The notes under the pieces: generated by a model
What the model was told of the DNA's origin: nothing
What the model saw: only the letters and a program-made list of their open reading frames with translations
Database searches by the model: none
Shown here: in pieces, positions 26,791 to 45,090 of the stretch
Position numbering within the stretch: the first letter of the stretch is position 1
Layout of the letters: every line of letters begins with the position of its first letter
Assembly: GCA_028030915.1 (NCBI GenBank)
Contig: GCA_028030915.1_4867.1
Reading direction: 5' to 3' (one strand)
DNA length: 64,000 nucleotides
DNA from: a phage
Position numbers and translations under genes: made by a program

Positions 26791-28968
26791 TTATGATAAC
26801 GATTTCTTTGGCCGCTCCCACGGTTTAGGGGCGGATTTGGTATACGGATTACATTCCATCATCTTGCCGAGATACGCATCGTAATACACGAAGCGATCGA
26901 CATAGAACTTCTCCACCGGTGCACTACTGGTAGCCGATTTCACCCGGTTGCGTTCCACAGCGAGGTTAATCGTCCCGGTAGGCGCGGGTTTTAGCGTGAA
27001 CATCACCGCACGGTTGTAACGCCAAGTGTCGTGCACAATATCAAACTCCGATACACTGTGTGCCATGATACCAAACAATGTGGTGCTCGGTAAATTGGCT
27101 ACAGCATCACCGTATGGTGTTCCCACCAAACCGCCGGGTATGTTTTGCTTTTTGAACAGCGTACCTGAAATAATCGTACCTAAGAACTCCACAACTACAG
27201 GCTTGGTTGGGTCGGTGACTTTATCTATCCCATCCGCACTGGCCAGTCGATTGGCATCTAAAACTGCGAGGTAGTCGAGGAACTCTTGGTACTCGTCGGT
27301 AACATTCGGTTTCACCGTTCCGACGGATACCCAGTTGACGATACTTTTATTCCCACCGACAGCTTCGCCTGCCATCCCAGGGCGAGTCCATGACATCCCG
27401 TCTTCACGACCGTAGACATAGACTGGCGAGCCGGTAGCCGGGGTGTTCCATTGCTCGAACGCTGTATATCGTCCCGGCTGGCCCCAATCCCCACCCGGAC
27501 CGCCATAGTAGCGACTCTGGTAGCCGGTAAATTGCGCGACGACTAACTGGGTAGCACCGCCTTTGTCACGGGACCCAGCTAAGCCGTTACGGTTATTGGT
27601 GCCGCTGGGCACCGCCGCGCCTGGCCCGAGAGGCGCACCACCAGCTCCACCGATCTTGGTGGTGCTAAACGCATAGTAGTCGCCCCCACCCCCACCTCCG
27701 GCGATGGTGCCGTAGTTTTCGATGGTGACTTTGCCACGGAAGGCATCGGTAATGTGGATTGCGTCAGCTCCGTCTGCTGATGTGTTCGCAGGCAGAGAAT
27801 AGACCATACCCGAACCACCACGACCAAGAATGGTTCCCCGGTTAACGAAGTTCCAAACCACCTCGCCAATTTGCGGCAATTCGTCGATAACGAACGTCGG
27901 TTTCAGGTTGCTGTCGCGATAAACGAAAGCCCCTGCATCCACGGTCACGTTAACAAACAAACGCCCGCACGCCGCATGGTTGGTCAACGTCGTGGCCCAG
28001 TAGCTGTCCGAAACTTGCGACGTAGTTGTGTAGTTCAGGTTAAGGGTTTGCTCGTTATCTTGATAGCGTGCCACATTCAACGTGGCACTGCCCATGACTT
28101 TGTACGAACCCTCCACGGGTGCCAATTGCACTTGTCTTGGCCACTCGCCTGCCAAGTTCTCTACAGGAGCAATTTCGTTTACATCAAAAACACTCCGAAT
28201 GCCGAGTGTCTCGATGGCCAGAGCATCGTGCAGGCTACCGGTGAAATCATCCGGGACGTATGTGGTTTTGCCTGCATATGTCTCGAGTTTGTTACGTGAA
28301 AAGAACACATACTTCGTTCCAAACATCCCGCTCCCCGGTCTAGCGGTCAAAGCCACGACGCTGTTATACGCAGAGGTTTGGCCTATATCCTCCGGGGACA
28401 TCGGGGCGCTGACATCGACTTTATCAAGATCCACGATCCGTTTGGCTGCATTAGAGTAGAAGTTAATCCACTGCTGTTTATTCGCAGCCTTTAACGTGAG
28501 AATGATATTGGTAACAGTGTAGACGGTGTTGATATCCACGTCGCCGTTTATCACATCTAGCGTTTGGCTGCCGTACCAGACAAGACTTGTCTGTTTCGCC
28601 TGGAACGTGATGCGCGCAGCATTGTTTGTCCAAGTGATAGGCAGGTCTTCAAAGTCGTCGGTTAAAAAGGTAATCCCCAGTAAAGTGTCTAAATGCGGCA
28701 ACAGTTCGTGAATGGATGCACAAGTGGGAATGGCATCCAACTTAACCTTAGCGAAATAATCAGCAATATTTTGCTTCGTGACTTGGGCCGTAATTTGACC
28801 GTAATTTGAATACCCCGGACCCCCTGTCAGTGTGACGTCTAGGGTTTTTTCGTCACGATGCGCCACGGACACCAGGCGTACGTTAGCGGGGTCTACTGCT
28901 TTGGCGACCGCGTTTTTACGGTTGAGCGACCGAATCACGGTCGCCACTAAATCAGGAGTGTAGGACAT
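26791..28968 (-). CDS. Gly-rich fibre-like structural protein (725 aa) with C-terminal PYTKSAPKPW tag
   Basis: Gly-rich tracts (TIAGGGGGGDYY, GGAGGAPLGPGAA); C-terminal NPYTKSAPKPWERPKK resembles the C-terminus of the upstream 439-aa protein. Confidence 0.6.
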   Translation of the reverse strand: MSYTPDLVATVIRSLNRKNAVAKAVDPANVRLVSVAHRDEKTLDVTLTGGPGYSNYGQITAQVTKQNIADYFAKVKLDAIPTCASIHELLPHLDTLLGITFLTDDFEDLPITWTNNAARITFQAKQTSLVWYGSQTLDVINGDVDINTVYTVTNIILTLKAANKQQWINFYSNAAKRIVDLDKVDVSAPMSPEDIGQTSAYNSVVALTARPGSGMFGTKYVFFSRNKLETYAGKTTYVPDDFTGSLHDALAIETLGIRSVFDVNEIAPVENLAGEWPRQVQLAPVEGSYKVMGSATLNVARYQDNEQTLNLNYTTTSQVSDSYWATTLTNHAACGRLFVNVTVDAGAFVYRDSNLKPTFVIDELPQIGEVVWNFVNRGTILGRGGSGMVYSLPANTSADGADAIHITDAFRGKVTIENYGTIAGGGGGGDYYAFSTTKIGGAGGAPLGPGAAVPSGTNNRNGLAGSRDKGGATQLVVAQFTGYQSRYYGGPGGDWGQPGRYTAFEQWNTPATGSPVYVYGREDGMSWTRPGMAGEAVGGNKSIVNWVSVGTVKPNVTDEYQEFLDYLAVLDANRLASADGIDKVTDPTKPVVVEFLGTIISGTLFKKQNIPGGLVGTPYGDAVANLPSTTLFGIMAHSVSEFDIVHDTWRYNRAVMFTLKPAPTGTINLAVERNRVKSATSSAPVEKFYVDRFVYYDAYLGKMMECNPYTKSAPKPWERPKKSLS

Positions 28969-28982: not shown

Positions 28983-30302
28983 CTATAGCGGTGGATACCA
29001 AGGGACCGGGGCGGTTTTGCTATATGGACTGTAGACCATATAGCCGCCTTTGCTTGGGTCGTAATAGATGAAATAGTTACAGTAATTCGAGTAGAGGCTC
29101 GTCAATTGTTTGGATTGGTATCCGTTACGGTATAGTCCCTGGTAAGTAATAGCCGATGTCGTGGTGGTGTAAGCAGTGTGGTACAGTACCCGACGCCGGT
29201 TAGCAATACTTTCTTGGAACATCTCTTCGGTCGGAAACGCGTGTTGCATCAGCCGTCGAATACTCCCGGTACAGTATCGAGTGCCATACGGGGAACCCGT
29301 TAAATCATCCATTGTTTCAGGCGCTTCCGCCCGAGTCAACACGTACTCGTTTTGATACAACGTGACGCTCATCGAATTTGAGCTGGTTTCCCGGAACCTC
29401 ATGTAACGCGCATAACGTTCGACGTCCTCTTCCTGCGCCAAATAGGCCACGTTATTTTTCGGACCAAAGTGCAAGAAGAACGGACGGCGGAGATTACCCA
29501 TATCCTCAGGTGGCGTCAACTTCACGCAGTAATTGTACTCCCCACGCATATCAGGGTCTAAGCCTGGGTTGTTATTGCGTGTAGCGACATACCCATAGAG
29601 GTCATACGGGTTATCGGTAGCAGCATTACTGATGGTGAACGGGATGCCAGACCATGCCGACAGCGCCGCGATAAACTGGGTCATGTACGAGTTACTGTTT
29701 AGTCGCAGCGGGGTACCCATTGGAATATTGATTATCTGTTGGGTGTACATGCTCCAGTCGAGTCGATAGACCGTGCTGTAAACATCCATGGGTTCCCAAG
29801 CCCCGGTTTCGGTGGTGTGGTACAAGTCGGCAAAGCTGGGCTCTTCACGAATAAAGCTAATAGGAATGTGACCCGTGAATGCGGGGTTATCCGATTTAAT
29901 CGCCACCGTCCGATCGCCCGTTGCCACAGTGATCATTGCAAACTGGCTGTCGGGATACGTTAAATCGTCAGCAGTAAGCACCAACCCACATGCTGCGGAA
30001 ATCCGGTCGATGATGTCGCGGTAGACCGTCGCCCGATAAGGTACTTTAACCGGTACGCTGACGCCTTTAAAATACTGCGAAAGGTTTAAGCGGTCGTAGT
30101 AGATGTCCATCTTACCGCTGTAACCGCCACCCTGTAATCCGTTTACCACTATACGGCTGTTGCGGCCATCGCGCAAGGCATTGGTTAAAGGACCTTGTAA
30201 TAACGCCACGTTGGTTGCGTTGAGTGGTTTCTTGAGCTGCGGGTTATCACGATTAATCTGATCCCAAACCAGCTGCATGACAGGTTTGTTATAGTTGATC
30301 AT
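28983..30302 (-). CDS. paralog-family protein, A-type variant (439 aa) with C-terminal SPYSKTAPVPW tag
   Basis: family N-terminus (...INRDNPQL...MDIYYDRLNLSQYF); C-terminus SPYSKTAPVPWYPPL instead of NGELDGF. Confidence 0.6.
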   Translation of the reverse strand: MINYNKPVMQLVWDQINRDNPQLKKPLNATNVALLQGPLTNALRDGRNSRIVVNGLQGGGYSGKMDIYYDRLNLSQYFKGVSVPVKVPYRATVYRDIIDRISAACGLVLTADDLTYPDSQFAMITVATGDRTVAIKSDNPAFTGHIPISFIREEPSFADLYHTTETGAWEPMDVYSTVYRLDWSMYTQQIINIPMGTPLRLNSNSYMTQFIAALSAWSGIPFTISNAATDNPYDLYGYVATRNNNPGLDPDMRGEYNYCVKLTPPEDMGNLRRPFFLHFGPKNNVAYLAQEEDVERYARYMRFRETSSNSMSVTLYQNEYVLTRAEAPETMDDLTGSPYGTRYCTGSIRRLMQHAFPTEEMFQESIANRRRVLYHTAYTTTTSAITYQGLYRNGYQSKQLTSLYSNYCNYFIYYDPSKGGYMVYSPYSKTAPVPWYPPL

Positions 30303-30310: not shown

Positions 30311-30350
30311 CCTAAAAAAAGAAAATAGGCCCTGAAGGGCCTATTTTTAG
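30311..30350. terminator. rho-independent terminator
   Basis: hairpin aggccctgaagggcct with T-runs on both strands; between the A-gene remnant and 28983..30302. Confidence 0.55.
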
Positions 30351-30376: not shown

Positions 30377-30469
30377 TTAACTCCAGCTGATTCGACCTGC
30401 GTGTTGGGGATTATCCCGCTGAATGAGCCGACACAACAGCTCAAGTGCAGTGGATGAGTAAAACCCCAT
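30377..30469 (-). pseudogene. 30-codon remnant of an A-type paralog N-terminus
   Basis: ATG 30469 with caggag SD; translates MGFYSSTALELLCRLIQRDNPQHAGRISWS then TAA; compare A3 MGLYSAPELELLCQQVVRDNPELAGRISADS; sits where a fourth A gene would follow C3. Confidence 0.5.
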
Positions 30470-30480: not shown

Positions 30481-31383
30481 TTAGCTAAGAACCAATTCGA
30501 TAACGTGGACTACCGACGCGCTATCGGTCGAATAGGTATACGATGGTGAGTCTGGTGAGTTGCTGCGATAGTACCAGGCGTTGTAGATGTCACGACCGTT
30601 GGCAAACAATGTTGCGCTTGAATCGGTTGGACTACCGCCGGAGCGCATCGGTAAGTCGCCAAAACGTCTTACGACGCCCGCGTACCGGAACAAGCTTGCG
30701 AACGTGTTGTGCCACTCGCCGTCTTGAAAATAACCACCGCTGCTTAGGTAGGTGCTGTGCCCATAACTGTAGTCTCCGAGTCGAGGCAAGCGTACCACAT
30801 ACTCGTAACCGTCTTTATTAAATGTCCGACGCTGGTTAGTGGTAGTGACGCCCCCTGGCGGGAAACCGTAGTCATCTGTTCCCCAGGCCAGACCTTGCCG
30901 GTATTGTTCTTCCCACGTCGTCCCTAAACGGGTCACCGTGTCAGGAATGAACAGAATGCGTCCTTTGAAAACGAATTTATGGAACAATGTTGGAGCTTGG
31001 TTCCAGGCATTAAAGCCAATTAAACCATTCAGCTCGGCATGGTTAAGAATAAATTCTTCGTTTGTCAGTGTGCCAAAGTAGCCACGATGCCAATCGCCAC
31101 GAATAAGTTCCTGTGGGCCGGGCCCTGTCATTGGAAAGTCGCCCTGTACAATCGGCAGCCCCATAACCTTTTCAGTGCCCTTTACCGCCACGATGCGATA
31201 TTGATACGTTTTATACGCCTCGGTGGTCGTGTCCTCGTACGTCGTTGTGTTACCTGGTAGTGTTACAATAGGTTCCCCCGGTGCCACTGGGTTAACACTT
31301 TGTCTAGGGTTGTCGTAACGATAGATTTCAATGGAATCTAAAGTCTGACCTGGCTGTTGTTTCCAGTTTAAGATAATCGACAT
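30481..31383 (-). CDS. module protein C3 (FN3-like N-terminus plus shared GPGP/GYFG domain), 300 aa
   Basis: MSIILNWKQ...IEIYR...YQYRIVAVKG beta-sandwich-like N-terminus; TGPGPQELIRGDWHRGYFGTLTNEEF; paralog of C1 and C2. Confidence 0.65.
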   Translation of the reverse strand: MSIILNWKQQPGQTLDSIEIYRYDNPRQSVNPVAPGEPIVTLPGNTTTYEDTTTEAYKTYQYRIVAVKGTEKVMGLPIVQGDFPMTGPGPQELIRGDWHRGYFGTLTNEEFILNHAELNGLIGFNAWNQAPTLFHKFVFKGRILFIPDTVTRLGTTWEEQYRQGLAWGTDDYGFPPGGVTTTNQRRTFNKDGYEYVVRLPRLGDYSYGHSTYLSSGGYFQDGEWHNTFASLFRYAGVVRRFGDLPMRSGGSPTDSSATLFANGRDIYNAWYYRSNSPDSPSYTYSTDSASVVHVIELVLS

Positions 31384-31386
31384 GTT

Positions 31387-32385
31387 TTACTCCACTAACT
31401 CGATAACGAATGCGTACAAACCGACCTTCTCAGCACTATCAACTAACGTAACTTGGGAGAGGTTACGTTTCGACGTATTGGTTATGCTTGAATCGATAGG
31501 CGCAGACCCGCGAACCAGAACTAATCCCGATTCAGGATCACGTTCTTGGCACAAGAAACCTTTGCCTTGGTAAGCGCTACCGCTCCCATAAATGGACGCT
31601 GGACTAATATTAGTCCAGTTAGGGAGCATTTGTTTGTTAGGGATACATTCTCCGAACGGATAAACAAAATCGTTATATTCGCAGCGACCATATTCCAAGT
31701 CATCATGGTCTGCGTTTCGCAACGATTCATCCAATGTCATTACTGTCGGTTCGTCCCCGTCGGTTAAACCGCGCAGCAATCGCATCCGATAGGTGTCGCC
31801 TTGCCATTCAAACAACCCACTCTGGTCAACACCTGCCAAATCCCCACGTCCGTTATCAGGACCAAATCCATCAACACCGTACACAAGCCCCGCGTTATAA
31901 ATGTCATTCCACGAGTAAAGTGTAGAGTTAAATCGTCCGCCGCTGTTCATCATGTAGTAAACTTTACCATGACGATAAAACTTGTTCATGATTAGCGTGC
32001 CCGTGCCCGATATCCCTGTTAATGCACGAAAGCCTGCAGGCAACGCGTCATAGGTCATCTGTTCTTCGAACGGCAACTGCCCCAGAAACGCCAAGTCGTC
32101 AGTATCGGAATAGTTAATCTGGTCGACGCCACCCACACCACGACGGTTTTTAATGACAATGGATTTTTGTGGACTACCTACGGTACGACCGTTAACAGTT
32201 ACTGTTAAAAGATACCAGTAACGGGTGTTAAGAATAACGGTTTCGTCCGTCCATTCCGTTTCGCCATTACTTAAAGTTGCAATAGGGGCTGGTAATGCGG
32301 CTGTATTTATTTTAGCCGTGCCCCGATAAATGTTAACAATTGAACCTGCCGGATTTTCATTTTTCCAGCGTAGTGTGAAAGCCAT
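31387..32385 (-). CDS. module protein B3 (FN3-like N-terminus plus shared domain), 332 aa
   Basis: MAFTLRWKN...VNIYRG...YWYLLTVTVNG; paralog of B1 and B2. Confidence 0.65.
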   Translation of the reverse strand: MAFTLRWKNENPAGSIVNIYRGTAKINTAALPAPIATLSNGETEWTDETVILNTRYWYLLTVTVNGRTVGSPQKSIVIKNRRGVGGVDQINYSDTDDLAFLGQLPFEEQMTYDALPAGFRALTGISGTGTLIMNKFYRHGKVYYMMNSGGRFNSTLYSWNDIYNAGLVYGVDGFGPDNGRGDLAGVDQSGLFEWQGDTYRMRLLRGLTDGDEPTVMTLDESLRNADHDDLEYGRCEYNDFVYPFGECIPNKQMLPNWTNISPASIYGSGSAYQGKGFLCQERDPESGLVLVRGSAPIDSSITNTSKRNLSQVTLVDSAEKVGLYAFVIELVE

Positions 32386-32395
32386 CTGTTACTCC

Positions 32396-33838
32396 TTAGA
32401 AGCCGTTCAACTCACCGTTCGCGGTTGCTAAATCTGTTTTAAGTGGAGGTTCTGCCTGAGTAGGCGGTAGTGGACGCGGTGCGTCGACGTGTGGTTCAAG
32501 TACAACCATCGGCCTAACTGTACCTACGCTCTTCGACACTGTCGATAACGGCAGCGCAGTATCGACGTTTGGTTCACCCACCACAATCGGGCTGATAGGT
32601 TCTTCCACCTGTTCCGCAGTTGTTGCTAGAGGTCTCGGCGCATCTGTTGTCGCAACCTCGACTGCAAGAGGGCGAATGCTATCAGGTTGTGGTGATGGTA
32701 CATTAGGAATAACCCTAACGCGCCACACAACATCCCCTTCCACATCAGCTAAAGGTAAGACGATGTCGTCCTTATTGATTTCCTCTAAAACAGGCCACCA
32801 GTAAGTGGTATCTGCAAGGGTTACCCATTCAACTGAGCCACCGCGCATATTGCAACGTTGTACTTTAACAGGGTTACCCCCGGTTAACAGTTGTTGCGTG
32901 AAGAAGACGGTGGTTCTGGTTAACGTGGTGTCATTTGCCCAGTCGCCACCCGTAGAACCGTCACCGAGTTGTGAAATAAGCCACAACGGCGTGGCCTTTG
33001 ATAAATCAGGGCTAACCGGAACGGAGACGCGGTAATAATGCGTCTTGTTATTCTCAGTTTTCGTGACAATCAAAGCCTGGTCAACAGGTTCGATACCGTC
33101 TGGATACGGACCAGCGTCACCTGTACCGAAAATGGCACCCGCTTGATAAAGGGCCGTCCAGGTTGCTGTTAACGTTCCGGTAGTCGGTAGATAAACAATC
33201 TTACCATCCTTGAAAAATTTCAACCACTCGAAAGTCATTTTCGTTGGGGCAATATCAGGACGAATTAGGTTGTTTAGTTCAGCAAAGGTAAATAACTCTT
33301 GCTGAGAAACGTGGCCGAAGTATCCGTTTGTGCTGTCCCCTGCCAACAGATATTTATTGCCTGGCCCAGAATCTGGATAGTACCTTACGGCTTCATTCAA
33401 ATAATCGACCGGGATATAGCCGCGATAGCATACGCTATTATACGCGGTTAAATTAATACGTGTTGGCGTTGCCAGCGATTTGATAGGCGCGTCTACCGAC
33501 TGTACACTGCTATCAGATAACCAAACACCGTATAAATCGCGTAGAGCTGGGAGAAGATCCCGCACGGTCTTGGCCGTTTGTGGTACGTAGACGCGCGGAG
33601 CTATTTTAAATAGATCTGATAATGTTAAACGGTCGTAATAGACCGTTATTTCCCCAGAGAATCCTTTACCGGGTTTACCTACCAACGTAATCACCGTGTT
33701 ACGACCATTCTTAGTGGTCTCGGCAGGAATACCCCTCACCCCAATCGAATCAGCACTGATTCGACCTGCGAGTTCAGGGTTATCCCTTACAACCTGTTGG
33801 CAGAGCAGTTCCAGTTCGGGTGCGCTATACAATCCCAT
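32396..33838 (-). CDS. module protein A3 (family N-terminal domain, central GPG/GYFG domain, C-terminal xPRPL repeats plus NGELNGF tag), 480 aa
   Basis: N-terminus nearly identical to A2 (MGLYSAPELELLCQQVVRDNPELAGRIS...ITVYYDRLTLSDLF); ends ...ATANGELNGF. Confidence 0.65.
   Translation of the reverse strand: MGLYSAPELELLCQQVVRDNPELAGRISADSIGVRGIPAETTKNGRNTVITLVGKPGKGFSGEITVYYDRLTLSDLFKIAPRVYVPQTAKTVRDLLPALRDLYGVWLSDSSVQSVDAPIKSLATPTRINLTAYNSVCYRGYIPVDYLNEAVRYYPDSGPGNKYLLAGDSTNGYFGHVSQQELFTFAELNNLIRPDIAPTKMTFEWLKFFKDGKIVYLPTTGTLTATWTALYQAGAIFGTGDAGPYPDGIEPVDQALIVTKTENNKTHYYRVSVPVSPDLSKATPLWLISQLGDGSTGGDWANDTTLTRTTVFFTQQLLTGGNPVKVQRCNMRGGSVEWVTLADTTYWWPVLEEINKDDIVLPLADVEGDVVWRVRVIPNVPSPQPDSIRPLAVEVATTDAPRPLATTAEQVEEPISPIVVGEPNVDTALPLSTVSKSVGTVRPMVVLEPHVDAPRPLPPTQAEPPLKTDLATANGELNGF
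33605..33838. repeat. nucleotide-level repeat (A3 5' region) shared with A2
   Basis: about 230 nt visibly near-identical to 37015..37247 (ggtcgtaata..ccgttatttccccag..tcctttaccgggtt..cctaccaacgtaatc..ttggcagagcagttcca..). Confidence 0.6.
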
Positions 33839-33849
33839 GAAGTCTCCTG

Positions 33850-34749
33850 TTAAGGCAGAACGAGTTCAAGTACCGCAATAGAGCGTATTGTAGCGGTACC
33901 GTAGTTACCCCATAACGGCGACTCTGGGTAGGGTGGACGGTTGTACCACTGAGCGGACAAGTTAACCATAGCCGCAAAGAATGCAGATTGTTGGGCAGTA
34001 ACCGAATCGATTGAACCGACCGGAAGGTCGTCAAAGCGCGGAAACTGCCCACTGTAGTTGTACAGGCGCGCGAAGGTGTTAAACCACTCACCGTCGAGAT
34101 ACAACTCGGTGTTACCGCTTCCAACGAAAGACGTCCAGTATTTGTAGTCGAACAAATACGGCAAGCGCACCACGTATTCGTAACCGTTTTTCGTCACCGT
34201 GCGGCGTTGGTTACGTGCACTAGCCCAGCTCGGCACATATCCGTTGCCATCCTGGCCGTACATCAGCCCCTGGTTATAAATGAACTGCGGGCTAGCGTAT
34301 ATTATCGAGTTATCGGACATAAACAGAATACGGTTTTTGTAAATGAACTTATGCCAGGCACCAACGGCGGAACTGAACATATTCACCACGAGGCTGTTCA
34401 GTTCCGCGTTAGTGAATAACTCTGCTGGCGTTACTGTTCCAAAGTATCCGGCGTGCCAGTCGCCGTATAACAGTTTCTGGGGGCCAGGCCCGGTGTCTAA
34501 AAAGAACCCTTGGGCGGTAGGGGTGTTGAAGACACGCTCACCGTCTTTAACCGCAGCTATCCAATAACGGTAAGTGGTGTTGTTTTCCACAGCGTTGTCT
34601 TCGTACGATGTAGCGTCACCCGGAAGGGTTGCCAGAGGCGTTCCCGGTGCATTAACATCAATGGTGGCGTTGCCCGGCGTCTTGCGATAGATTTCAATGT
34701 TATCGAGCGCCTGTGGCTTCCGTTGTGCAAAGTTTAATGTAATAGGCAT
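33850..34749 (-). CDS. module protein C2, about 299 aa
   Basis: start refined to ATG 34749 (gagga SD; listed start is TTG 34785); MPITLNFAQ...IEIYRK...YRYWIAAVKD; TGPGPQKLLYGDWHAGYFGTVTPAELF. Confidence 0.65.
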   Translation of the reverse strand: MPITLNFAQRKPQALDNIEIYRKTPGNATIDVNAPGTPLATLPGDATSYEDNAVENNTTYRYWIAAVKDGERVFNTPTAQGFFLDTGPGPQKLLYGDWHAGYFGTVTPAELFTNAELNSLVVNMFSSAVGAWHKFIYKNRILFMSDNSIIYASPQFIYNQGLMYGQDGNGYVPSWASARNQRRTVTKNGYEYVVRLPYLFDYKYWTSFVGSGNTELYLDGEWFNTFARLYNYSGQFPRFDDLPVGSIDSVTAQQSAFFAAMVNLSAQWYNRPPYPESPLWGNYGTATIRSIAVLELVLP

Positions 34750-34751
34750 GA

Positions 34752-35738
34752 TTAATCCTCGATAAGCTCGATTACTGGAATCCAAATACCGCCGGTCGCA
34801 CCAGGGACATGTTGTATACGCTGGAGGTTATCCACAGTATCAGTGGAATCCGCCGCCGCCCATCCGCGCGTCAGCCCCAACTTACTGTCTGGGTCAAACT
34901 CCTGACAATGCGCCCCACGGCCTGCCACCAGCGATCCACTTCCGAATATGCTGGTGTTCGACCACTTTATCAGGGACATCACTTTTTTCTTTTCTGGGAA
35001 CCAGCTACTTATCCCATAGATGAGTCGGTTGTATTCGCTATCGGCAGTATACGGCGACTCGTCATGGAGTTTACCGTTCCACTGTGCGTCGAGTGTCATG
35101 ACCGGGCTTTCACTGTCGAGCGTTAACCCGCGCAGCAGGCGCATCCGATAGCGGTCACCCAACCACGTAAACTCCCCAGCCTGGTCAACGTCAGGTAAAT
35201 CACCATGACCGCCTTCCGGACCAGGTCCCGCCACACCGTACAGCAAACCCGCGTTATAAATCGCATCACGGCTATACAGCGTGTTGCCGTTCACACGAAG
35301 ACCACTAAACAGATACAGAATTTTACCGTCTAGCTGGAACTTCATCAAGCCCGGCTTAACAGTTGGGTCGTATCCAGAAAGGGCCACAAACCCTGGCGGA
35401 TAATCACCCGCGCTAGGTAATTCACCGTACGCCACGTACCCGTAATACGCAAAGCGGTCATCACCGTACTGTGGAGCCACGATGCCGATACCGCGACGGT
35501 TCTGAATCAGAATTGATTTCTGCGGACTGAACAGTGTCCGACTTCCCACTGTCACGGTGGTCATGTAGTAATACGTTGTCCCCAGTATCGCTGTTCGGTC
35601 AGTATACTCAGTTTCCCCGTTAGTGAACGTTGCCAGGGGTTCAGGTAATGCCGTACGCACCAGAGGTTTGGTGTCGCGGTACAGCTTCACGGTCGAAGCC
35701 CCAGAGTTATTGTTCGTCCAACGAATTGTAAAAGCCAT
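34752..35738 (-). CDS. module protein B2, 328 aa
   Basis: MAFTIRWTNNNSGASTVKLYRD...YYYMTTVTVGS. Confidence 0.65.
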   Translation of the reverse strand: MAFTIRWTNNNSGASTVKLYRDTKPLVRTALPEPLATFTNGETEYTDRTAILGTTYYYMTTVTVGSRTLFSPQKSILIQNRRGIGIVAPQYGDDRFAYYGYVAYGELPSAGDYPPGFVALSGYDPTVKPGLMKFQLDGKILYLFSGLRVNGNTLYSRDAIYNAGLLYGVAGPGPEGGHGDLPDVDQAGEFTWLGDRYRMRLLRGLTLDSESPVMTLDAQWNGKLHDESPYTADSEYNRLIYGISSWFPEKKKVMSLIKWSNTSIFGSGSLVAGRGAHCQEFDPDSKLGLTRGWAAADSTDTVDNLQRIQHVPGATGGIWIPVIELIED

Positions 35739-35750
35739 TGTCGTTACCTC

Positions 35751-37247
35751 TTATTGGAATCCATCCAACTCACCGTTAGTATCGCCCAGAGTAATTTTTG
35801 AAGGTTGGGCGATTTGGTCAGTCGTGAGAATAATCGGTCTAATCTTAACGCTAGCCATGCCTGTTACCGCGACGGAATATGCACGTTCATCATTGTCCGT
35901 CGTGGCAAGCAGAGGACGTGGTGAGTCTGATGACGCTTCCCGTACCCAGGCAGGGGTGGCAGTTTCGGTGTTGTCGGTGTTGAAAACTAACGGACGTGGA
36001 TTCGCTGCGGCGGAGGTTTCCGTAATAGGCACCACACGAAGAGATTCATTTTGGTCGATGTCCGTCAGAGTAACCACGGACGGTGCCCATGTTAATTCTG
36101 CACCTTCGTCAATCAACGGCACAGGTTCATTGGCAACATCAAACATCTCCAAGATTGGCCAAAAGCCAGAAGAGGTGTAGATGTAGGTGTATGAACGATA
36201 GCTCCCACTGATAGACTGGTAATACGCTTGGTCGGCACCGAACTGGTGTCGTAACCACACGTAATCCAGGAAGTTAGCATCAGTCGTGCTAAGAGTTCCC
36301 CACTCCCCATATACGTTCACCGACCCCAATTTGCTGGTCAGTGACAGGATAGAGGTGATTGACGGCGGTTTACTCCAATCAGGCGCGGCGGCGTTCTCGG
36401 TGTAATACGGGATAGACATTCTGAAATAATGCGTTCCTTCATCATCCCGTTTTACCATGTATTTCAACTGTTCAACATCGACAGGTGTGTAAGTCGACTT
36501 CGGGCGAGGTCCTGCGTCTCCGGAATCAAATATTGCACCCTTGTTGTACAGGTCTGCCCAGGTAACGTTGCAAATCGCACGGGTCGGAACAAACACTACC
36601 GCCCCATTCAGAAAGAATTTGAGCCACTTGATAGCGTAGCGGTTAGGCCAGTTGGTGCCGTTATAGAGGGCATACACCATTTCATCAGATGTGAATAACT
36701 CTTCCGCGCTTACCAGCCCAAAGAATCCGTATAACTCATTACCGGCCATTAATCCTTTTGGCCCAGGGCCCGACTTCGGATACATCGCAATCGGTTCGTA
36801 AACATAGGTCATCTTGCATGACCCGGTATAACACAAGGAGTTAGCGTGCGCCGTCAGAGTTACAGTTTCCGGCGTAGCGTATTTCATTAATGCAACGTTT
36901 GGACTGGTGATGTCACTCGCGGTTAAGTTCAACCCGTTCAATTCATTGAACGCCGGTAACGCTTCCGCATGGGTTTGTGCGCTACGTGGAATACTCACCA
37001 TATTCGGGCCAGACTTAAATAGACTGGCCAGATTCAACCGGTCGTAATATACCGTTATTTCCCCAGCAAATCCTTTACCGGGTTTTCCTACCAACGTAAT
37101 CTGAGTGTTTCGTCCGTTAACGTTTTTCGCAACAGGAACACCCCTGACCCCAATGGAGTCAGGGGTGATTTTTCCTGCTAAACCGGGATTGTCACGCACA
37201 ATTTGTTGGCAGAGCAGTTCCATTGAAGGTTCTGTATACAACCCCAT
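35751..37247 (-). CDS. module protein A2, 498 aa, C-terminal NGELDGF tag
   Basis: MGLYTEPSMELLCQQIVRDNPGLAGKIT...ITVYYDRLNLASLF; xPRPL repeats; ends ...GDTNGELDGFQ. Confidence 0.65.
   Translation of the reverse strand: MGLYTEPSMELLCQQIVRDNPGLAGKITPDSIGVRGVPVAKNVNGRNTQITLVGKPGKGFAGEITVYYDRLNLASLFKSGPNMVSIPRSAQTHAEALPAFNELNGLNLTASDITSPNVALMKYATPETVTLTAHANSLCYTGSCKMTYVYEPIAMYPKSGPGPKGLMAGNELYGFFGLVSAEELFTSDEMVYALYNGTNWPNRYAIKWLKFFLNGAVVFVPTRAICNVTWADLYNKGAIFDSGDAGPRPKSTYTPVDVEQLKYMVKRDDEGTHYFRMSIPYYTENAAAPDWSKPPSITSILSLTSKLGSVNVYGEWGTLSTTDANFLDYVWLRHQFGADQAYYQSISGSYRSYTYIYTSSGFWPILEMFDVANEPVPLIDEGAELTWAPSVVTLTDIDQNESLRVVPITETSAAANPRPLVFNTDNTETATPAWVREASSDSPRPLLATTDNDERAYSVAVTGMASVKIRPIILTTDQIAQPSKITLGDTNGELDGFQ
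37015..37247. repeat. nucleotide-level repeat (A2 5' region) shared with A3
   Basis: see 33605..33838. Confidence 0.6.
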
Positions 37248-37260
37248 GGTATTTACTCCA

Positions 37261-38184
37261 TTACGGTAAGACTAATTCAAAAGCAAAGAATATCGTGGCC
37301 GAGTTCCCGACACCTGCGGTGTTACTAATCCCCATAGGCACGGTGCCATACGCATAAGCGAATATGTTGTTGCTCCACAAAGGAGCTAATACAGCGGCAC
37401 CTGACTCATTCGGCTGCGCAGTCGCGCCTTGTCTTTCAAGTGAGTCAATCGCACCAAGACCGAGGGCTGCGTACTGTGCACCGACAGGATACAAACGGCC
37501 CATTGTGTTTCGCCATTCACCGTTGTTGTAATCCTGTCCTGAGAGTGCCGCGTCGTACGGGACTGCGTAAGGTAATCGGATACGGTACGTACGACCATCC
37601 TTCGTGACCTTACAATCTTGTTTAGTCGCCGTGGCTCCCTGCGGAACAATACTTCCGACATCATCGGTCCCGTACATCATGCCGTACTGATACGCCATTT
37701 GTACCGAGTTGCTTTTCGAATGCATCGTCGCTGGGAAGAAGACAATTCGCCCACGGAAAATAAACTTGTGCCATTCCTGAGGGTCGTAAGTAAACATGTT
37801 TCCCTGCTGCGCGGTTAACATGAGTTTTAACTCGGCAGTATTAAAGAACTCGGTATTAGATACCGTACCGAAATAGCCTGACGCCCAATCGCCACGCAAA
37901 ATAGTTTGTGGCCCCGGTCCAGTGTCCGGATAGAACCCTTGCGTAATCGGATTGCCGATAAGTCGTTCATTATCTTTCACAGCAGCTACCCAGTAACGAT
38001 AAGTTGTATTCTTCGTCAGGGTATCGATATTATCTACGAACTCTACCGCGCTACCGGATAAGGTGGCGTGGGGTGTGCCTGGGTTGTAAACGTCGATTGT
38101 TGCGTTCCATCCTTCCTTGCGGTAGATTTCAATCGCGGTAAGACCTTTGCTGGCTTGGGACGGCCAGCTTAACCGTATAGTCAT
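37261..38184 (-). CDS. module protein C1, 307 aa
   Basis: MTIRLSWPSQ...IEIYRKEG...YRYWVAAVKD; TGPGPQTILRGDWASGYFGTVSNTEFF. Confidence 0.65.
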   Translation of the reverse strand: MTIRLSWPSQASKGLTAIEIYRKEGWNATIDVYNPGTPHATLSGSAVEFVDNIDTLTKNTTYRYWVAAVKDNERLIGNPITQGFYPDTGPGPQTILRGDWASGYFGTVSNTEFFNTAELKLMLTAQQGNMFTYDPQEWHKFIFRGRIVFFPATMHSKSNSVQMAYQYGMMYGTDDVGSIVPQGATATKQDCKVTKDGRTYRIRLPYAVPYDAALSGQDYNNGEWRNTMGRLYPVGAQYAALGLGAIDSLERQGATAQPNESGAAVLAPLWSNNIFAYAYGTVPMGISNTAGVGNSATIFFAFELVLP

Positions 38185-38193
38185 GACTGCCCC

Positions 38194-39192
38194 TTACTCG
38201 ACCAGTTCAAAGATAGGGTAGTAGCGCCCTTTCGTGGTGGGTGATAAATAGTTTATACGCTGAATCGTGGATACGGGTGTTCCACCGGCATTGTTAAAAA
38301 TACCACGATGGAGCACACGGTCTTCCGCGGTGTCGTGTTCCATACAGAGAACACCACCGCCGAAATACTGTGCCAAGGTTCCCAAAGTACCCTGCCCCAG
38401 AAAAGTATAACTGTTCGTTGCCCAGTTAGCCCAACGCTGTTTCCACGGCACCTCGTTAACCATCGTGTAAAGTAAATCGTTATACTCACACGGGTTGGTT
38501 AGAGAAGCGATTTCATCGTGGGTTTTCCCATTGTAGTCAGCTACGAAAGGATACGCAGGAGACTCGCTAGACGTCGTCAGGCCGCGAGGAAGACGCATAA
38601 TGTACGTATCCCCTTTGTGGACTATCTTAGCGTCTTGTGGAGTGGCTGGTAGCGTTCCATGGCCGTTCTCTGGGCCAGCATCGCCTGTACCATAGACTAA
38701 ACCAGCTTGATAGAGGGAAGCCCAGTCCACAGGCGTATTCGGGAACTGCGACGTGCTAGATAGCATGTAATAGATCTTCCCGTTTCGGGTAAATTTATAC
38801 AACGCCACACGATCGGTTAGTAGGTTAGGGAACATCGCCAAAAATGCAGGTGGCATTTGCGACGGAAGCCACTGTTCGTCGTAAGGAACCGCACCCATAA
38901 ACCCTAAACGGTCGTCACCGTTTAGAATAGTCATTGGACCGATCCCACGCTTTATCTCAATGGTGTATTTCTGGCTAGACGATGCCACTGTTTTACCGTT
39001 GGCGGTTACCGTCAGAAGGTAATAATAGGTTGCGCCTGGTGTGGCGGTGGTATCACGCCATTCTGTCTCGCCATTTGAGAGCGTTGCAATCGGTTCAGGC
39101 AAAGCGCTTGGTGTGATATCTTTAACATCACGGTAGATTTTTACTACCGTAGGGATTACGTTTGGATTTTTCCAACGCAAAGTAAAAGACAT
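38194..39192 (-). CDS. module protein B1, 332 aa
   Basis: MSFTLRWKNPNVIPTVVKIYRD...YYYLLTVTANG. Confidence 0.65.
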   Translation of the reverse strand: MSFTLRWKNPNVIPTVVKIYRDVKDITPSALPEPIATLSNGETEWRDTTATPGATYYYLLTVTANGKTVASSSQKYTIEIKRGIGPMTILNGDDRLGFMGAVPYDEQWLPSQMPPAFLAMFPNLLTDRVALYKFTRNGKIYYMLSSTSQFPNTPVDWASLYQAGLVYGTGDAGPENGHGTLPATPQDAKIVHKGDTYIMRLPRGLTTSSESPAYPFVADYNGKTHDEIASLTNPCEYNDLLYTMVNEVPWKQRWANWATNSYTFLGQGTLGTLAQYFGGGVLCMEHDTAEDRVLHRGIFNNAGGTPVSTIQRINYLSPTTKGRYYPIFELVE

Positions 39193-39203
39193 AGATGATA
39201 CCT

Positions 39204-40616
39204 CTACTTAAAGCCGTCCAGTTCACCGTTAAGAGACGTTAACGTTGTCTTGTCAGGGGGCGTATACATTTCAGCGGCGGCTGCAATAGGTTGGAAGTCG
39301 ACTGTCTTCGGCAGCATTAAAGCAGGCGGATGCAGTGCGAAACTGTTTTCTGAAGTAACAACTACCGGTTCGAAATCGGTAGTATCCGGATTACCGAGCA
39401 CTAACGGCTTGAGACTAAATGTGTTTTCTGCGGACACGCTGCACGGTTGGAGACTGTAATCTACCGCACCATGGATATCTTCTAAACCCAAGGTAACTGT
39501 GGACTTATCCACCAACTCCAGCACCGGGAACCAGTAGTAGTTGCCCGCACTCGATGATTTTTCTAAGTTTGTCCAACTGGCTCCAGACAACGTCGCCATG
39601 CGATGATTGGCGACGTTGGTGTTCAGTGTATCTTTCAATAAACAGAACAGCGACCAGTAACTGTTAATCGGTTTGTCCCACGTTCCATTATACAGAAAGT
39701 TGAACATCTCAAACTCACTACCTGCTAACTCAGCGGCAGTTGGGGTGCCGCTGACATATGGGTCCTTCCCAGCACTAGGTAGACGAACGCGGAAGTAAAA
39801 CCTTTTATTGTCTGCGCCTGTAAAGCTAATGATGCGTCCCTGGTTAACGGGCGTCGCCGCAGGGTATTTACCATTATCGTCTGTTCCGTAAACGAGTCCG
39901 TTTGTATATAACGTATTCCAGGAGATGGAGCCAGCGACAGGACTGATCGGGAGGTAAATAACCCTACCCTGGTAAAAGAACTTGTACCAACCTTCGGCAC
40001 CAGAATGTACCGGTGGTAACGCACCGGCCGATATAGTGGCATTAAGAAGTTGAGAGTGTGTAAACAACTCTGCAGTTCTGGTTGTTCCGAAATAACCCGC
40101 GATAGTGTTACCTTGCAGCAACGTTTTAGGGCCAGGTCCAGAATCGGGGTAAATTGCACCACTCGGGACGGTATAACGTATCGTTAAGCTGCCTGTAAAC
40201 GCAGGGCAATTGCCTGAGATATTTAATTTCAACGTCTGCGGCGAAACGCTCGGTTTAGGTAAACTTGCGTCAGGTGACTGCAAATCAGAAGCAACTAATG
40301 TAAGCCCCAATGCGTCGTTTATTGCAGGTAGCGCGTCTCGTACCGTTAAGACTGTATCTTTGATAGCCACAGTCGGCACAAAATTAAATAAAGTGGCCAG
40401 GTTAATCCGGTCGTAGTACACGGTAACATTACCTTGTACACCTGTCCCTGGATACCCGGTGAAAACAGCTTTGGTGTTACGTTGGTTTAACGTAACTGAG
40501 GTTGGGCCACCGGTTAAAGCAGCGATAGCCGGCGTCAACTTAACAACTAAATCAGGGTTATCCCGATTGACTTGGTCGTATACAAGCAGTGCCGACTCCT
40601 TCGAGTAAAATAGCAT
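39204..40616 (-). CDS. module protein A1, 470 aa, C-terminal NGELDGF tag
   Basis: MLFYSKESALLVYDQVNRDNPDL...NVTVYYDRINLATLF; YPDSGPGPKTLLQGNTIAGYFGTTRTAELF; ends ...TSLNGELDGFK. Confidence 0.65.
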   Translation of the reverse strand: MLFYSKESALLVYDQVNRDNPDLVVKLTPAIAALTGGPTSVTLNQRNTKAVFTGYPGTGVQGNVTVYYDRINLATLFNFVPTVAIKDTVLTVRDALPAINDALGLTLVASDLQSPDASLPKPSVSPQTLKLNISGNCPAFTGSLTIRYTVPSGAIYPDSGPGPKTLLQGNTIAGYFGTTRTAELFTHSQLLNATISAGALPPVHSGAEGWYKFFYQGRVIYLPISPVAGSISWNTLYTNGLVYGTDDNGKYPAATPVNQGRIISFTGADNKRFYFRVRLPSAGKDPYVSGTPTAAELAGSEFEMFNFLYNGTWDKPINSYWSLFCLLKDTLNTNVANHRMATLSGASWTNLEKSSSAGNYYWFPVLELVDKSTVTLGLEDIHGAVDYSLQPCSVSAENTFSLKPLVLGNPDTTDFEPVVVTSENSFALHPPALMLPKTVDFQPIAAAAEMYTPPDKTTLTSLNGELDGFK

Positions 40617-40630: not shown

Positions 40631-40660
40631 GCCAAAAGATGGGGCTCCGAAGAGCCCCTA
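40631..40660 (-). terminator. hairpin with short T-run (weak terminator)
   Basis: - strand ggggctcttcggagcccc followed by atctttt; between 40664..41494 and A1. Confidence 0.4.
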
Positions 40661-40663: not shown

Positions 40664-41494
40664 TTAGCTGTTATAGTGGTAGTACGCCACACCTTTCACG
40701 CCGTCTTCATCAATACCCGTTTGGATAACCACACGGTCGTACGATTTGTTAGCGAACTGAGCGGTGGATGTCGGCACATCCTGAACGGTGTTACTGTTCA
40801 GTGGCCCCGCGTAGTTCGGAATACCCAGGTCATCCAACACCTTACGCAAACCAGCCCACTGCGGTAGGCCAGAAGCATCTACTGCCAGTAGGTTTTTATA
40901 CGCGGTAAAGTCAATACCGTACGTCAACAGGTCGATGCACTTCTTACCGAGAGACGGTGAAATAGGCTCTTGAATCGCATTCAAGACATCCGATTTCACC
41001 GAAGTGTCTAGTACCGGTAAACCACGGTTATAACGCAACGTCGCAGAACCGATATAAGCCGGAGATGTCGATAGCGCTGCAATGGTCTGTGTATTGGTGT
41101 AATTTGGGGTATTGGCACCAAACAGTGAGTAGTTTTGGATATCGATTGCGGAGAAGTTTACTCCGTAGGTATCCAAGAGCACCGAAAAGGCTGAGTGGAG
41201 GTTGGGTGCGTCAAACGTGACGAACTGCGCCTGGACGGAAGGCCCCCACGGCAATAACCGCGCTAAGTTCACACGGTCGTAGTAAACGGTGATTGCGTCT
41301 CGAAATCCAGAACCCTGAATACCGCGCAAGCGTGCCGACGTATTGCGGTTGTTGGAAGCTGCATTAACGGGAACCTGTGTCACTTTCTCCACGTAGCAGT
41401 TTGCCGGCGACGCTTTAATAGGCAGGTTTGGGTTATCCCGGTTAATGAGGTCAAAGACCAACTCGTTTGACGGCTTAGCATAGTTGATCATCAA
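40664..41494 (-). CDS. paralog-family protein (about 280-aa class), 276 aa
   Basis: N-terminal family domain (...LINRDNPNL...ITVYYDRVNLARLL); C-terminus ...AYYHYNS. Confidence 0.6.
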   Translation of the reverse strand: MMINYAKPSNELVFDLINRDNPNLPIKASPANCYVEKVTQVPVNAASNNRNTSARLRGIQGSGFRDAITVYYDRVNLARLLPWGPSVQAQFVTFDAPNLHSAFSVLLDTYGVNFSAIDIQNYSLFGANTPNYTNTQTIAALSTSPAYIGSATLRYNRGLPVLDTSVKSDVLNAIQEPISPSLGKKCIDLLTYGIDFTAYKNLLAVDASGLPQWAGLRKVLDDLGIPNYAGPLNSNTVQDVPTSTAQFANKSYDRVVIQTGIDEDGVKGVAYYHYNS

Positions 41495-42382
41495 TTATAC
41501 CTCGCTTGGATCGTCCAGATCGTTGAACTGGAGATACAACGTTCCGACGATGGTGGTACAGGTAACAGGCAGTTTCAACACCAGCGCATACTTGTACTTC
41601 GCGTTTGTCGGCATTGCAACAGGGTCATTCAGACCAACGCTGATAACCTCCGCGCCCGCCAAACCGTAGGAAGCGGAGGTGGTCGCTACCCATGCAGTAC
41701 CCGTAATATCTTTCAGCAGGTTAACCATATCCGTCAACGGCTGTCCGGACAGAATACCCGGCTTGTATGCCAGCAACTCATCACGGTATTTGGTGAAGTT
41801 GTACGGGTAGGAATAAACCTCTGCAATGACCGCAGTAACATTTTCGGAACCCATCTGACCGTTCGGGTATTTCAGACCGGTCAGGACGTTAGTGGTGACT
41901 GCAGAGACTAACGACTCATCGCCTTTCACGACTTTAAATGTCGCCTGTCCAACCCAACCGATAGACTCAGGATGTGCAACAACACGCACAGTTCCTTCAG
42001 TCTTATCACCGTTCCATTCGATATCTGCGTCCTGCAGGTCAGCTTCTTCCAGAACAAAACCGTAACGTTGGTTCAGTCCAGGAATGGCCGCATACAAGGT
42101 TTCGTTGGATGGGCCGATCGCCAACGTGTCACCAATCAGCACTAACAAGTCTTCGACTTTCATGCGGTTGTAGAAGACATTTTTCTTACCCGACCAGGTA
42201 GAGCCCGTTACTCCATCTGCCGTAATTTTAATTTGCGTGTTACGGTTAGTCAGCGTTTCCTTCTCCGTACCACGAATGTCCTTTGGCGTGGACCAGATGA
42301 TATCAGTCATCTTAACAGCAAGCGAGTTCTGTGCGTTCACTGCTGCCAACAGGACGTCTTTAGAAGGTTGATAAATAGCCAT
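41495..42382 (-). CDS. paralog-family protein, 295 aa
   Basis: MAIYQPSKDVLLAAVNAQNS...NVFYNRMKVEDLL; C-terminus ...LYLQFNDLDDPSEV. Confidence 0.6.
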   Translation of the reverse strand: MAIYQPSKDVLLAAVNAQNSLAVKMTDIIWSTPKDIRGTEKETLTNRNTQIKITADGVTGSTWSGKKNVFYNRMKVEDLLVLIGDTLAIGPSNETLYAAIPGLNQRYGFVLEEADLQDADIEWNGDKTEGTVRVVAHPESIGWVGQATFKVVKGDESLVSAVTTNVLTGLKYPNGQMGSENVTAVIAEVYSYPYNFTKYRDELLAYKPGILSGQPLTDMVNLLKDITGTAWVATTSASYGLAGAEVISVGLNDPVAMPTNAKYKYALVLKLPVTCTTIVGTLYLQFNDLDDPSEV

Positions 42383-42392
42383 TCGCTAATTC

Positions 42393-43232
42393 CTAGTTGT
42401 TGTAGTGCAACATACACTCGCCGATTACTTTCGGGTCGTTCTGAATGCCGGTAATCAGCAATACGTTATCGTACGCTTTATTGGCGGTCGCCAACTCACT
42501 CGTTTTGTAGCGGGTAATTGTGCAGTTCGTCGGATCAAACGACGGTACCCCACGTGCGACCAATGTGGCCATCAGATTGGACGTGTAACCCAAATCAAAG
42601 TTACTTCCTACGTCCATTCGCCCGTTCTTAAACGAGGCCATAACCTGCACTTCATCAGTAAAGTCTTCCCCGTACGTCAAGAAGCCCATGTATTTCTTAC
42701 CAGTGCTTGCTGCTGCAGGGTGGTTCAAAGCCGACAAGATGTCGTTTACCACGAGGTCTTCGAGGCTATTCTTACCCCGGATAGACATAAAGGTGATGCT
42801 GCCAGTGTATTGGATACAGCTAGCGTTAATGCGCATCGTGTTGTTTACGTTCAGATAAACGTATTGTTCTGGGATATCATCTGCGACCAGGTTTAACCCA
42901 TAACGACCGTTCAGGTTCTGCGCAAACGCAGTACGTTTCGACTCCACGTTCAACCAACCGTAGGCATTCGGTGCAGTTACCTGAGGTGTCATGTTCTTAA
43001 ATAAGTCGTTCAGCGACAAGCGCTTATAACGGAACGTCTGAGGACCGATATAGCCACGACCTTGACGACCACGAATGATAATCTCAGTATTGGCACCGCT
43101 TGCTGTCGGTGTGATTGCTTTCGGCGTACCGATGATAGCATTGTCTAAACCCATCGGTAGAACAGCATCCGGGTTTTCGGCATTAATCGCATCGTACAGA
43201 TATTGTCGCTGAGACAGACTATATAAAGCCAT
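42393..43232 (-). CDS. paralog-family protein, about 279 aa
   Basis: start refined to ATG 43232 (gaggagg SD; listed start is TTG 43250); ...DAINAENPDA...TFRYKRLSLNDLF; C-terminus ...MLHYNN. Confidence 0.6.
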   Translation of the reverse strand: MALYSLSQRQYLYDAINAENPDAVLPMGLDNAIIGTPKAITPTASGANTEIIIRGRQGRGYIGPQTFRYKRLSLNDLFKNMTPQVTAPNAYGWLNVESKRTAFAQNLNGRYGLNLVADDIPEQYVYLNVNNTMRINASCIQYTGSITFMSIRGKNSLEDLVVNDILSALNHPAAASTGKKYMGFLTYGEDFTDEVQVMASFKNGRMDVGSNFDLGYTSNLMATLVARGVPSFDPTNCTITRYKTSELATANKAYDNVLLITGIQNDPKVIGECMLHYNN

Positions 43233-43251
43233 AATAGCCTCCTCGGCCAAA

Positions 43252-43290
43252 AAAGAAAGGAGTAGCCAGGAGGAGGATTTCCTCCTCCCA
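43252..43290 (-). terminator. hairpin-type terminator between paralogs
   Basis: - strand ggaggagga-aat-cctcctcc followed by T-rich ctcctttcttttttgg. Confidence 0.45.
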
Positions 43291-43301
43291 GCGAGGCCTA
43301 A

Positions 43302-45080: not shown

Positions 45081-45090
45081 GTCAAAATCC

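Follow-up and report, generated by a model that had tools for sequence, protein, structure and literature searches.

A stretch of phage DNA of 64,000 nucleotides (NCBI GenBank assembly GCA_028030915.1, contig GCA_028030915.1_4867.1; the whole stretch is called the window below) carries, at positions 30481-40616, nine minus-strand genes that are three anciently diverged copies of a three-gene cassette, A-B-C, found across chimalliviruses. The original prediction had described this block as a thrice-repeated module of paralogous structural proteins with near-identical 5′ ends. The order A1-B1-C1, A2-B2-C2, A3-B3-C3, the minus strand, the nine open reading frames (ORFs) and the limits of the block are exactly as predicted, and the domain signatures were recovered as well; the near-identity of the 5′ ends was not, so that the observation stands in part.

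The block is 97.6% identical in nucleotide sequence to phage SPN3US across all 10,136 bases; for SPN3US, Proteus phage 7, SPLA1a and further phages of the genus Seoulvirus the values span 97.6-98.6%. Seoulviruses are giant, nucleus-forming phages of the phiKZ group, and SPN3US infects Salmonella. The nine ORFs are one-to-one orthologues of SPN3US_0145 through SPN3US_0153 (gp145-gp153); judged by orthology and by their position at the same locus, the nine genes are members of the published SPN3US paralog family B. This family (gp83, gp138-154, gp160/161 and gp237) was named by Ali et al. 2017 (PMC5694885), with no function assigned. Within it, gp138-gp154 form a 17-member virion paralogue family. 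Family B was already known as a set of virion paralogues, 17-20 in number, that remain with heads lacking tails (Thomas 2016, PMC5105663; Ali 2017, PMC5694885; Scheuch 2023, PMC10052503), and it has been called possibly the largest paralogue set in any single phage genome.

Domain architecture of the A, B and C proteins

In the direction of transcription the first cassette comprises A1 (39204..40616, 470 residues, gp145 orthologue), with a DUF7941 domain at residues 1-150, a lectin-like domain at about 150-372 and a tail from about 371; B1 (38194..39192, 332 residues, gp146 orthologue), with an FN3-like N-terminus followed by the shared lectin-like domain; and C1 (37261..38184, 307 residues, gp147 orthologue), with FN3 at residues 1-84 and the shared domain at 85-307. 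The second cassette consists of A2 (35751..37247, 498 residues, gp148 orthologue), which has the architecture of A1, B2 (34752..35738, 328 residues, gp149 orthologue) and C2 (33850..34749, 299 residues, gp150 orthologue). The start of C2 is probably the ATG at 34749, and the TTG at 34785 chosen by mechanical ORF calling, which makes the gene overlap B2, is probably not a real start. A3 (32396..33838, 480 residues, gp151 orthologue), B3 (31387..32385, 332 residues, gp152 orthologue) and C3 (30481..31383, 300 residues, gp153 orthologue) make up the third. Spacers of 2-13 nucleotides separate the nine genes, and hairpins lie on both flanks of the block: a GC-rich hairpin between gp144 and A1, upstream (40641..40658, minus strand), and a terminator-like hairpin with a T-run that closes the block (30322..30347, minus strand). 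A scan for sigma-70 promoters gave no more matches than in shuffled sequence.

All-against-all BLASTP comparison grouped the proteins by class, with within-class E-values of 1e-50 to 1e-97 and identities of 29-39% (A-A), 39-48% (B-B) and 37-45% (C-C), and also tied the middle of the A proteins to the C-terminal parts of B and C. The region in common is a domain of about 220 residues present in all nine proteins, and alignment of the nine copies reproduced the motifs by which the shared downstream domain had first been recognised. Its fold is likely C-type-lectin-like or FGE-like according to structural models, the fold-similarity scores being modest. None of the nine domains matched Pfam at E-values up to 10, the domain has no NCBIfam match, its profile matched no PDB sequence, and searches of PDB chains with the A1 and C1 sequences returned nothing useful; membership in a lectin, FGE-sulfatase or DUF1566 family was thus not found at the sequence level. 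In a 2021 survey, jumbo phages were reported to have no C-type-lectin-fold FGS domains.

When 1.84 billion representative proteins were searched with a profile, 1849 cluster representatives carrying the shared domain were recovered, 1178 of them at E ≤ 1e-10, indicating a large family that lacks a curated model. Three architectures account for most relatives: FN3 plus domain, domain at the front, and anchor plus domain. A small number are fusions with two to eight copies in tandem, single polypeptides with three, four, six and eight copies among them, and certain of these fusions also bear Kelch, LamG, discoidin, bacterial Ig, glycine-rich or DUF285 domains, company that, as far as architecture can tell, fits a surface-exposed binding module. 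One triple fusion (6123-8207) was found on a short contig, the remaining ORFs of which appear phage-like on visual inspection. An obligate A:B:C heterotrimer of three lectin-like domains was considered and is weakened by the fusions of 2, 3, 4, 6 and 8 copies.

The classes differ in what precedes the shared domain. In the A proteins, the family N-terminal domain noticed from the sequence was identified as DUF7941 (Pfam PF25613), which matches residues 1-150 of A1 (109 bits, E = 3e-31) and A2 (105 bits, E = 5e-30) far above the gathering score of 27 bits; A3 was placed by alignment rather than by profile scan, and aligns throughout with A1, A2 and PF25613-positive homologues. The match in A1 and A2 covers profile positions 1-153 of 276, and the remainder of each protein is the lectin-like domain and the tail; the canonical DUF7941 linker and C-terminal globular domain (profile positions ~154-276) are missing from both. 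Structure comparison of the predicted A1 model revealed that its N-terminal globular domain has the fold of phiKZ gp127. B and C gave no DUF7941 match in the Pfam scan and are not members of that family. They begin instead with a beta-sandwich of seven strands in FN3 topology, in agreement with the FN3/Ig-like signature initially reported.

The A1 model is confident over residues 1-379 and disordered over 380-470. The A tails are 100-128 residues long, start after the last lectin-like strand (W.PVLELVD) and hold two or three proline-hydrophobic repeats: two of 26 residues in A1 (ENTFSLKPLVLGNPDTTDFEPVVV and ENSFALHPPALMLPKTVDFQPIAA) and three in A2, whose tail has 128 residues. They end in LNGELDGFK (A1), TNGELDGFQ (A2) and ANGELNGF (A3), which define a strongly conserved terminus common to the A proteins, K[TI]xL..xNGEL[DN]GF. 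This motif occurs four times in the whole window, in the three A proteins and in the orthologue of gp160 (23372..23899, minus strand, 175 residues), which joins a short DUF7941 N-terminal domain to the A-protein C-terminal motif KTDLSTTNGELDGFV. The terminus of the gp160 orthologue shows the same KTDLSTTNGELDGF motif as the three A proteins, and gp160 is an abundant virion protein in the SPN3US proteomics (PMC10052503). In Cronobacter phage CR5, a gp155-like protein (10282-12450) ends in ...DTLDGFKK and a gp160-like protein (15989-16531) has DGELDGFK near its end, suggesting that the motif is used more widely in CR5 than in the window.

The 5′ ends of A2 and A3 had been taken for near-identical over about 230 nucleotides. 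We found 74% nucleotide and 74% amino-acid identity over 234 nucleotides, with a synonymous divergence (dS) of about 1.0. These first 234 nucleotides are the least diverged part of the pair, dS being saturated in the remaining gene, and B2 and B3 share a comparable patch (31763-31907 versus 35122-35266, 73%). Recent gene conversion at the A2/A3 5′ ends was rejected on these values of dS and nucleotide identity. Diversification of the lectin-like domain by a retroelement was likewise rejected because no near-identical repeat pair was present: the best direct repeats in 26000-48000 are paralogous stretches only 73-74% identical, unlike those of a diversity-generating retroelement, and no reverse transcriptase turned up among the ORFs examined.

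Inheritance, rearrangement and selection of the cassettes

The A-B-C order is constant in CR5, EC001, SPLA3, the window, SPN3US and Erwinia phage ChrisDB, and the number of cassettes varies from one (CR5) through two (EC001 and SPLA3) and three (the window and SPN3US) to four (ChrisDB). Neighbour-joining trees of A, B and C are congruent and resolve five cassette types. Type I comprises cassette 1 of the window and cassette 1 of ChrisDB; type II, cassette 2 of the window; type III, cassette 3 of the window and cassette 2 of ChrisDB; type IV, an extra cassette of JN03 and cassette 4 of ChrisDB; and type V, cassette 3 of ChrisDB and the CR5 cassette. The congruence implies that the duplications are older than the split between the Salmonella and Erwinia phages and that the three genes travel together, which, with the one to four cassettes among relatives, bears out the modularity first proposed. 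In PhiEaH1, PhiPA3 and RSL2 the same order recurs, a lectin-like protein with a C-terminal extension being followed by two or three FN3-bearing proteins. The first protein in these distant chimalliviruses has no DUF7941 anchor, suggesting that the anchor is an addition in the SPN3US/Erwinia/CR5 branch.

Natural isolates have lost, gained and rearranged cassettes. Downstream of C3 the window holds the stub of a fourth A gene (30377..30469, minus strand), with a ribosome-binding context of its own and 30 codons that read MGFYSSTALELLCRLIQRDNPQHAGRISWS before the stop. Over its first 22 codons, 21 of 22 residues match the 5′ end of the intact type IV A gene in JN03, and its next 15 nucleotides are identical to nucleotides 69-83 of A3; by these sequence matches the stub is a recombination scar that marks a junction. 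In JN03, the type IV cassette starts exactly at the stub ATG and takes the place of gp154 and gp155, with cassette 3 largely deleted. In SPLA3, cassette 3 was lost in a crossover within a 15-nucleotide identity, CTGATTCGACCTGCG, common to the A3 5′ end and the stub sequence downstream of C3. EC001 lost it via a 9-nucleotide microhomology, and the same coverage gap is seen in Lh1B. SPLA5c carries a rearrangement of B2/B3 at their conserved patch, with a junction that includes a local duplication and is only partly resolved, and a small deletion in the A2 tail. No link between cassette 3 loss and the host was seen: of the three phages without it, EC001 and Lh1B grow on E. coli, whereas SPLA3 grows on Salmonella. 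An apparent loss of cassette 3 in SPFM11 is probably an artefact, as the match reaches the end of the linear record and the record has a second matching place.

The idea that receptor-binding cassettes swap by homologous recombination behind a conserved anchor is upheld at most in part. The SPLA3 deletion and the left junction of the JN03 swap do lie in the A-gene 5′ end; however, that end is only 74% identical between A2 and A3, and it is whole three-gene cassettes that move, not distal tips.

Two side observations concern the records compared. SPLA3 is 96-100% identical to the window over most of the cluster, with values of 88% for A1, 80% for gp144, 92% for gp143 and 100% for C1, and its counterpart of 39204-41494 looks, on these identities, mosaic through recombination, with the boundary close to where gp144 meets A1. 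The SPFM phage records LR535901, LR535903-04, LR535906, LR535911, LR535913 and LR535917 match in 40 short pieces that cover 24% of the region at >99% identity; this pattern, together with odd truncated proteins, suggests indel-riddled assemblies, not real biology.

Ratios of nonsynonymous to synonymous substitution (dN/dS) were obtained for the window against four Seoulvirus genomes, and these comparisons gave no general signal of ongoing diversifying selection. The A and B genes have ratios of 0.05-0.23, apart from one near-identical B2 pair with 1.26 on almost no substitutions; C2 and C3 reach 0.5-0.7, indicative of relaxed constraint; and in the comparisons with EC001 and JN03 gp160 has ratios of about 0.9-1.7, which greatly exceed those of its neighbours. 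Recent diversification is thus not supported: the paralogues are ancient, A and B are under purifying selection within Seoulvirus, and only C2 and C3 are relaxed.

Virion association and proposed function

All nine SPN3US orthologues were found with mass spectrometry in triplicate, doubly caesium chloride (CsCl)-purified virions (PMC10052503 Table S2), which confirms the structural nature predicted for these proteins. In heads of a tail-tube mutant, purified on two CsCl gradients, the head to wild-type (head/WT) ratios are 0.89-1.67 for gp138-gp155 and 1.06-1.67 for the nine cassette proteins, and the sheath, tube, baseplate and fibre proteins drop to ≤0.07 (PMC10052503). A tail receptor-binding role is at odds with proteins that keep with tailless heads in this way. 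Per kDa, cassette 1 has spectral counts of 3.6, 3.6 and 4.8, cassette 2 of 10.3, 13.3 and 5.1, and cassette 3 of 5.1, 10.7 and 6.1, as compared with 11.7 for the 12-copy portal (PMC10052503); by this rough measure, the values suggest that the cassette proteins are present in few copies and that those of one cassette are roughly equal in amount.

The block is embedded among further DUF7941 proteins. Upstream of A1 lie seven full-length DUF7941 paralogues (40664..46741, minus strand), the orthologues of gp144 down to gp138, which are presumed to be filament or scaffold subunits of the family. Downstream are the orthologue of gp154 (28983..30302, minus strand, 439 residues), with a DUF7941 N-terminal domain and a C-terminal domain in common with gp155 (phrog_6409), and that of gp155 (26791..28968, minus strand, 725 residues), in which a DUF7941 N-terminal domain is combined with a glycine-rich gp38-type adhesin domain at residues 373-553 (Pfam GP38, 66 bits against a cut-off of 25). 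Weak matches among PDB sequences, to 6f45_D and 9v85 (the solved S16 and gp38 adhesins), were obtained for the latter as well. By coupling the DUF7941 anchor to a gp38-type adhesin domain, gp155 strengthens the case for an adhesin role of the family, and its head/WT ratio is 0.89 despite that domain (PMC10052503). A binding role for the cassettes is plausible given this neighbour, the FN3 domains and the lectin-like fold.

We infer binding function, ligand, A-B-C assembly and anchor site as follows. In the most likely and most economical reading, each cassette would supply a trio of lectin-like surface proteins, and the cassettes would be surface adhesins tethered through A, a proposal that we hold to be about evenly balanced between right and wrong. 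A would plug the cassette into the particle's DUF7941 protein network via its N-terminal domain; since this domain is the only recognisable virion-attachment module in the trio, A is the most likely member to attach it. B and C, with FN3 in place of the anchor, would be recruited by their own A, possibly via its disordered, repeat-bearing C-terminal tail. Retention of B and C by the cognate A would account for the congruence of the trees, for the close linkage of the genes and for the comparable protein abundance. Once on display, the lectin-like, FN3 and gp38-type domains would serve as surface adhesins toward glycans or proteins of the host or the environment, and having several cassette types would widen the binding range of the particle. 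Whole A-B-C units are gained, lost and exchanged, partly by recombination at the conserved A-gene 5′ end.

Several observations weigh against this proposal. Its anchor site is contested, since the SPN3US proteomics places the proteins on the head, and the phiKZ structure and the Goslar preprint place the family at the outer baseplate. Module 3 is dispensable in three natural isolates (EC001, Lh1B and SPLA3) with no obvious host link, a receptor binder in an arms race would not usually show the purifying selection seen on A and B, and the tandem fusions known elsewhere, spanning two to eight copies, do not mark three as a required number. Taken together, the interpretation first offered, a modular and diversifying array for host recognition or virion decoration, is supported as to structural nature and modularity, and not as to a near-identical anchor, recent diversification or a role on the tail.

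The explanations differ as to where the proteins are located: the only direct data on the SPN3US proteins themselves point to the head or neck, and the single structural datum for the fold points to the baseplate. The Goslar preprint describes DUF7941 as a chimallivirus-specific family, models the linker and C-terminal domain of one protein as docking on the N-terminal domain of the next, and proposes for all chimallivirus DUF7941 proteins a baseplate-anchored "fibre cloud" for host recognition; purified Goslar gp22 forms filaments in vitro (bioRxiv 10.64898/2026.04.21.720040). Under this model the cassettes would be tail or baseplate receptor-binding proteins at the distal ends of DUF7941 filaments that emanate from the outer baseplate, determining host range like swappable fibre tips, an explanation that we consider doubtful. 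It draws on the fold that the A1 anchor shares with phiKZ gp127, the N-terminal domain of which was placed in the outer baseplate, where the gp139 band ends (PMC13250141), on the attachment of the whole family to the baseplate proposed in the preprint, on the gp38-type tail-adhesin domain of gp155, and on a nearby DUF1353 gene with the RefSeq name "tail assembly chaperone". The phiKZ placement, however, rests on an AlphaFold 3 (AF3) model docked into a 4.4 Å map (PMC13250141), and the published tailless-head proteomics conflicts both with a tail-fibre role and with the 2026 baseplate model: gp138-gp155 persist in tailless heads from which true tail proteins are nearly gone, an earlier tailless mutant gave the same result, and gp237, one small family member, alone behaves as a tail protein. 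Within the adhesin-cassette proposal, the head or neck is more likely than the baseplate as the site in this phage. A more specific form of that proposal, a multi-specific adhesin coat on the head or neck and not the tail, in which a DUF7941 scaffold is tipped by lectin-like trios and a gp38-type adhesin, is put forward tentatively; if true, first contact with cells or surfaces would be made via the capsid, and the chimallivirus-wide baseplate model would be wrong for the SPN3US lineage.

Residence on the head would also suit proteins with no binding role, either internal and ejected or acting as capsid cement, whose repeats merely add structural mass. In the work of the SPN3US group the entire family is allotted to the head, with gp143 at one time labelled "head ejection?", and both the purifying selection on A and B and the dispensability of cassette 3 agree with such a role. 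We nevertheless regard it as unlikely, because FN3, lectin-like and gp38-type adhesin domains are typical extracellular binding modules, fusions of the shared domain with lectin and Ig domains occur elsewhere, external filaments are formed by a relative, phiKZ gp127 is external, and the published list of nine SPN3US head proteins that the prohead protease processes includes none of these proteins. Very improbable is an enzymatic role of B and C as glycosyl hydrolases (depolymerases) carried by the virion. In the Proteus phage 7 record all six B and C proteins are labelled "glycosyl hydrolase", and some Goslar DUF7941 proteins are predicted to have hydrolase domains, yet no hydrolase family in Pfam, NCBIfam or PHROG matches B or C, and that annotation was rejected as unsupported in these databases and in fold searches.

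Neighbouring genes and known systems

Other genes adjoin the structural cluster. On the plus strand at 19843-22114, two adjacent genes encode proteins of 316 and 442 residues with CxxxCxxC-type motifs that are annotated as radical SAM proteins in relatives; they are followed by a gene for a DUF4376 protein (22619-23290), and this trio lies next to the cluster. An ORF of 163 residues on the opposite strand to the cluster (24023-24514, plus strand) has a lipoprotein-like N-terminus (LLAGC) and no Pfam match. It neighbours lysis-type genes, namely an endolysin with GH108 and PG_binding_3 domains (26095-26748) and an ORF with a weak Peptidase_M15 match (24640-25155). The DUF1353 protein (25165-25806, minus strand) was classed as non-virion in the SPN3US proteomics, with about three spectra per replicate.

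The genes, their paralogy and their presence in virions were already known. As far as the literature was searchable, the organisation into three-gene cassettes, the domains assigned, the cassette types and the congruence of their trees, the indels and the swap of cassettes in natural isolates, the stub of an A gene and the size of the unannotated domain family are new. Half of the family is thereby resolved into a repeated unit with one anchor-bearing and two FN3-bearing members and a shared lectin-like domain, from which concrete hypotheses follow, and the live conflict between the SPN3US proteomics (head) and models based on cryo-electron microscopy (baseplate) is sharpened. EC001, Lh1B, SPLA3, SPLA5c and JN03 are ready-made natural variants for comparison of host range and adsorption, and such phages are under development for Salmonella control.

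The closest known system is SPN3US paralog family B itself, as the genes are the same and the window is from a phage of the SPN3US species. In the accessible parts of the SPN3US papers the family is treated as one undivided group, and the split into anchor- and FN3-bearing members, the lectin-like fold, the cassette types and the indels are not described there; nor is the A-B-C periodicity described in the parts of the SPN3US, Goslar and phiKZ papers that were available. Compared with the Goslar proteins and phiKZ gp126/gp127, the A proteins of the window are without the canonical DUF7941 C-terminal domain, and B and C are without DUF7941; the three-gene cassette is absent from the available text of the Goslar and phiKZ papers, and the baseplate site proposed in them conflicts with the SPN3US head proteomics. 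With the established C-type-lectin-fold binders, namely Bordetella phage Mtd, Treponema TvpA, the Legionella Lcl C-terminal domain and the Bdellovibrio fibre tips, the window domain has no detectable sequence relationship; the window also lacks a template/variable repeat pair, its diversity stemming from ancient duplication and cassette exchange. If the head assignment holds, T4 Hoc and other head-fibre proteins offer a parallel as likewise dispensable, low-affinity adhesin domains displayed on the capsid, although Hoc is a single Ig-domain protein on every hexamer and the window has about 18 family proteins, most of low copy number, with three-gene cassettes among them. The branched fibres of the giant phages RaK2 and phiKp24 resemble the cassettes in presenting many paralogous binding proteins side by side with a common N-terminal docking domain; they are, however, tail-borne depolymerase tailspikes with known capsule specificities, whereas the window proteins have no enzyme fold and do not behave like tail proteins.

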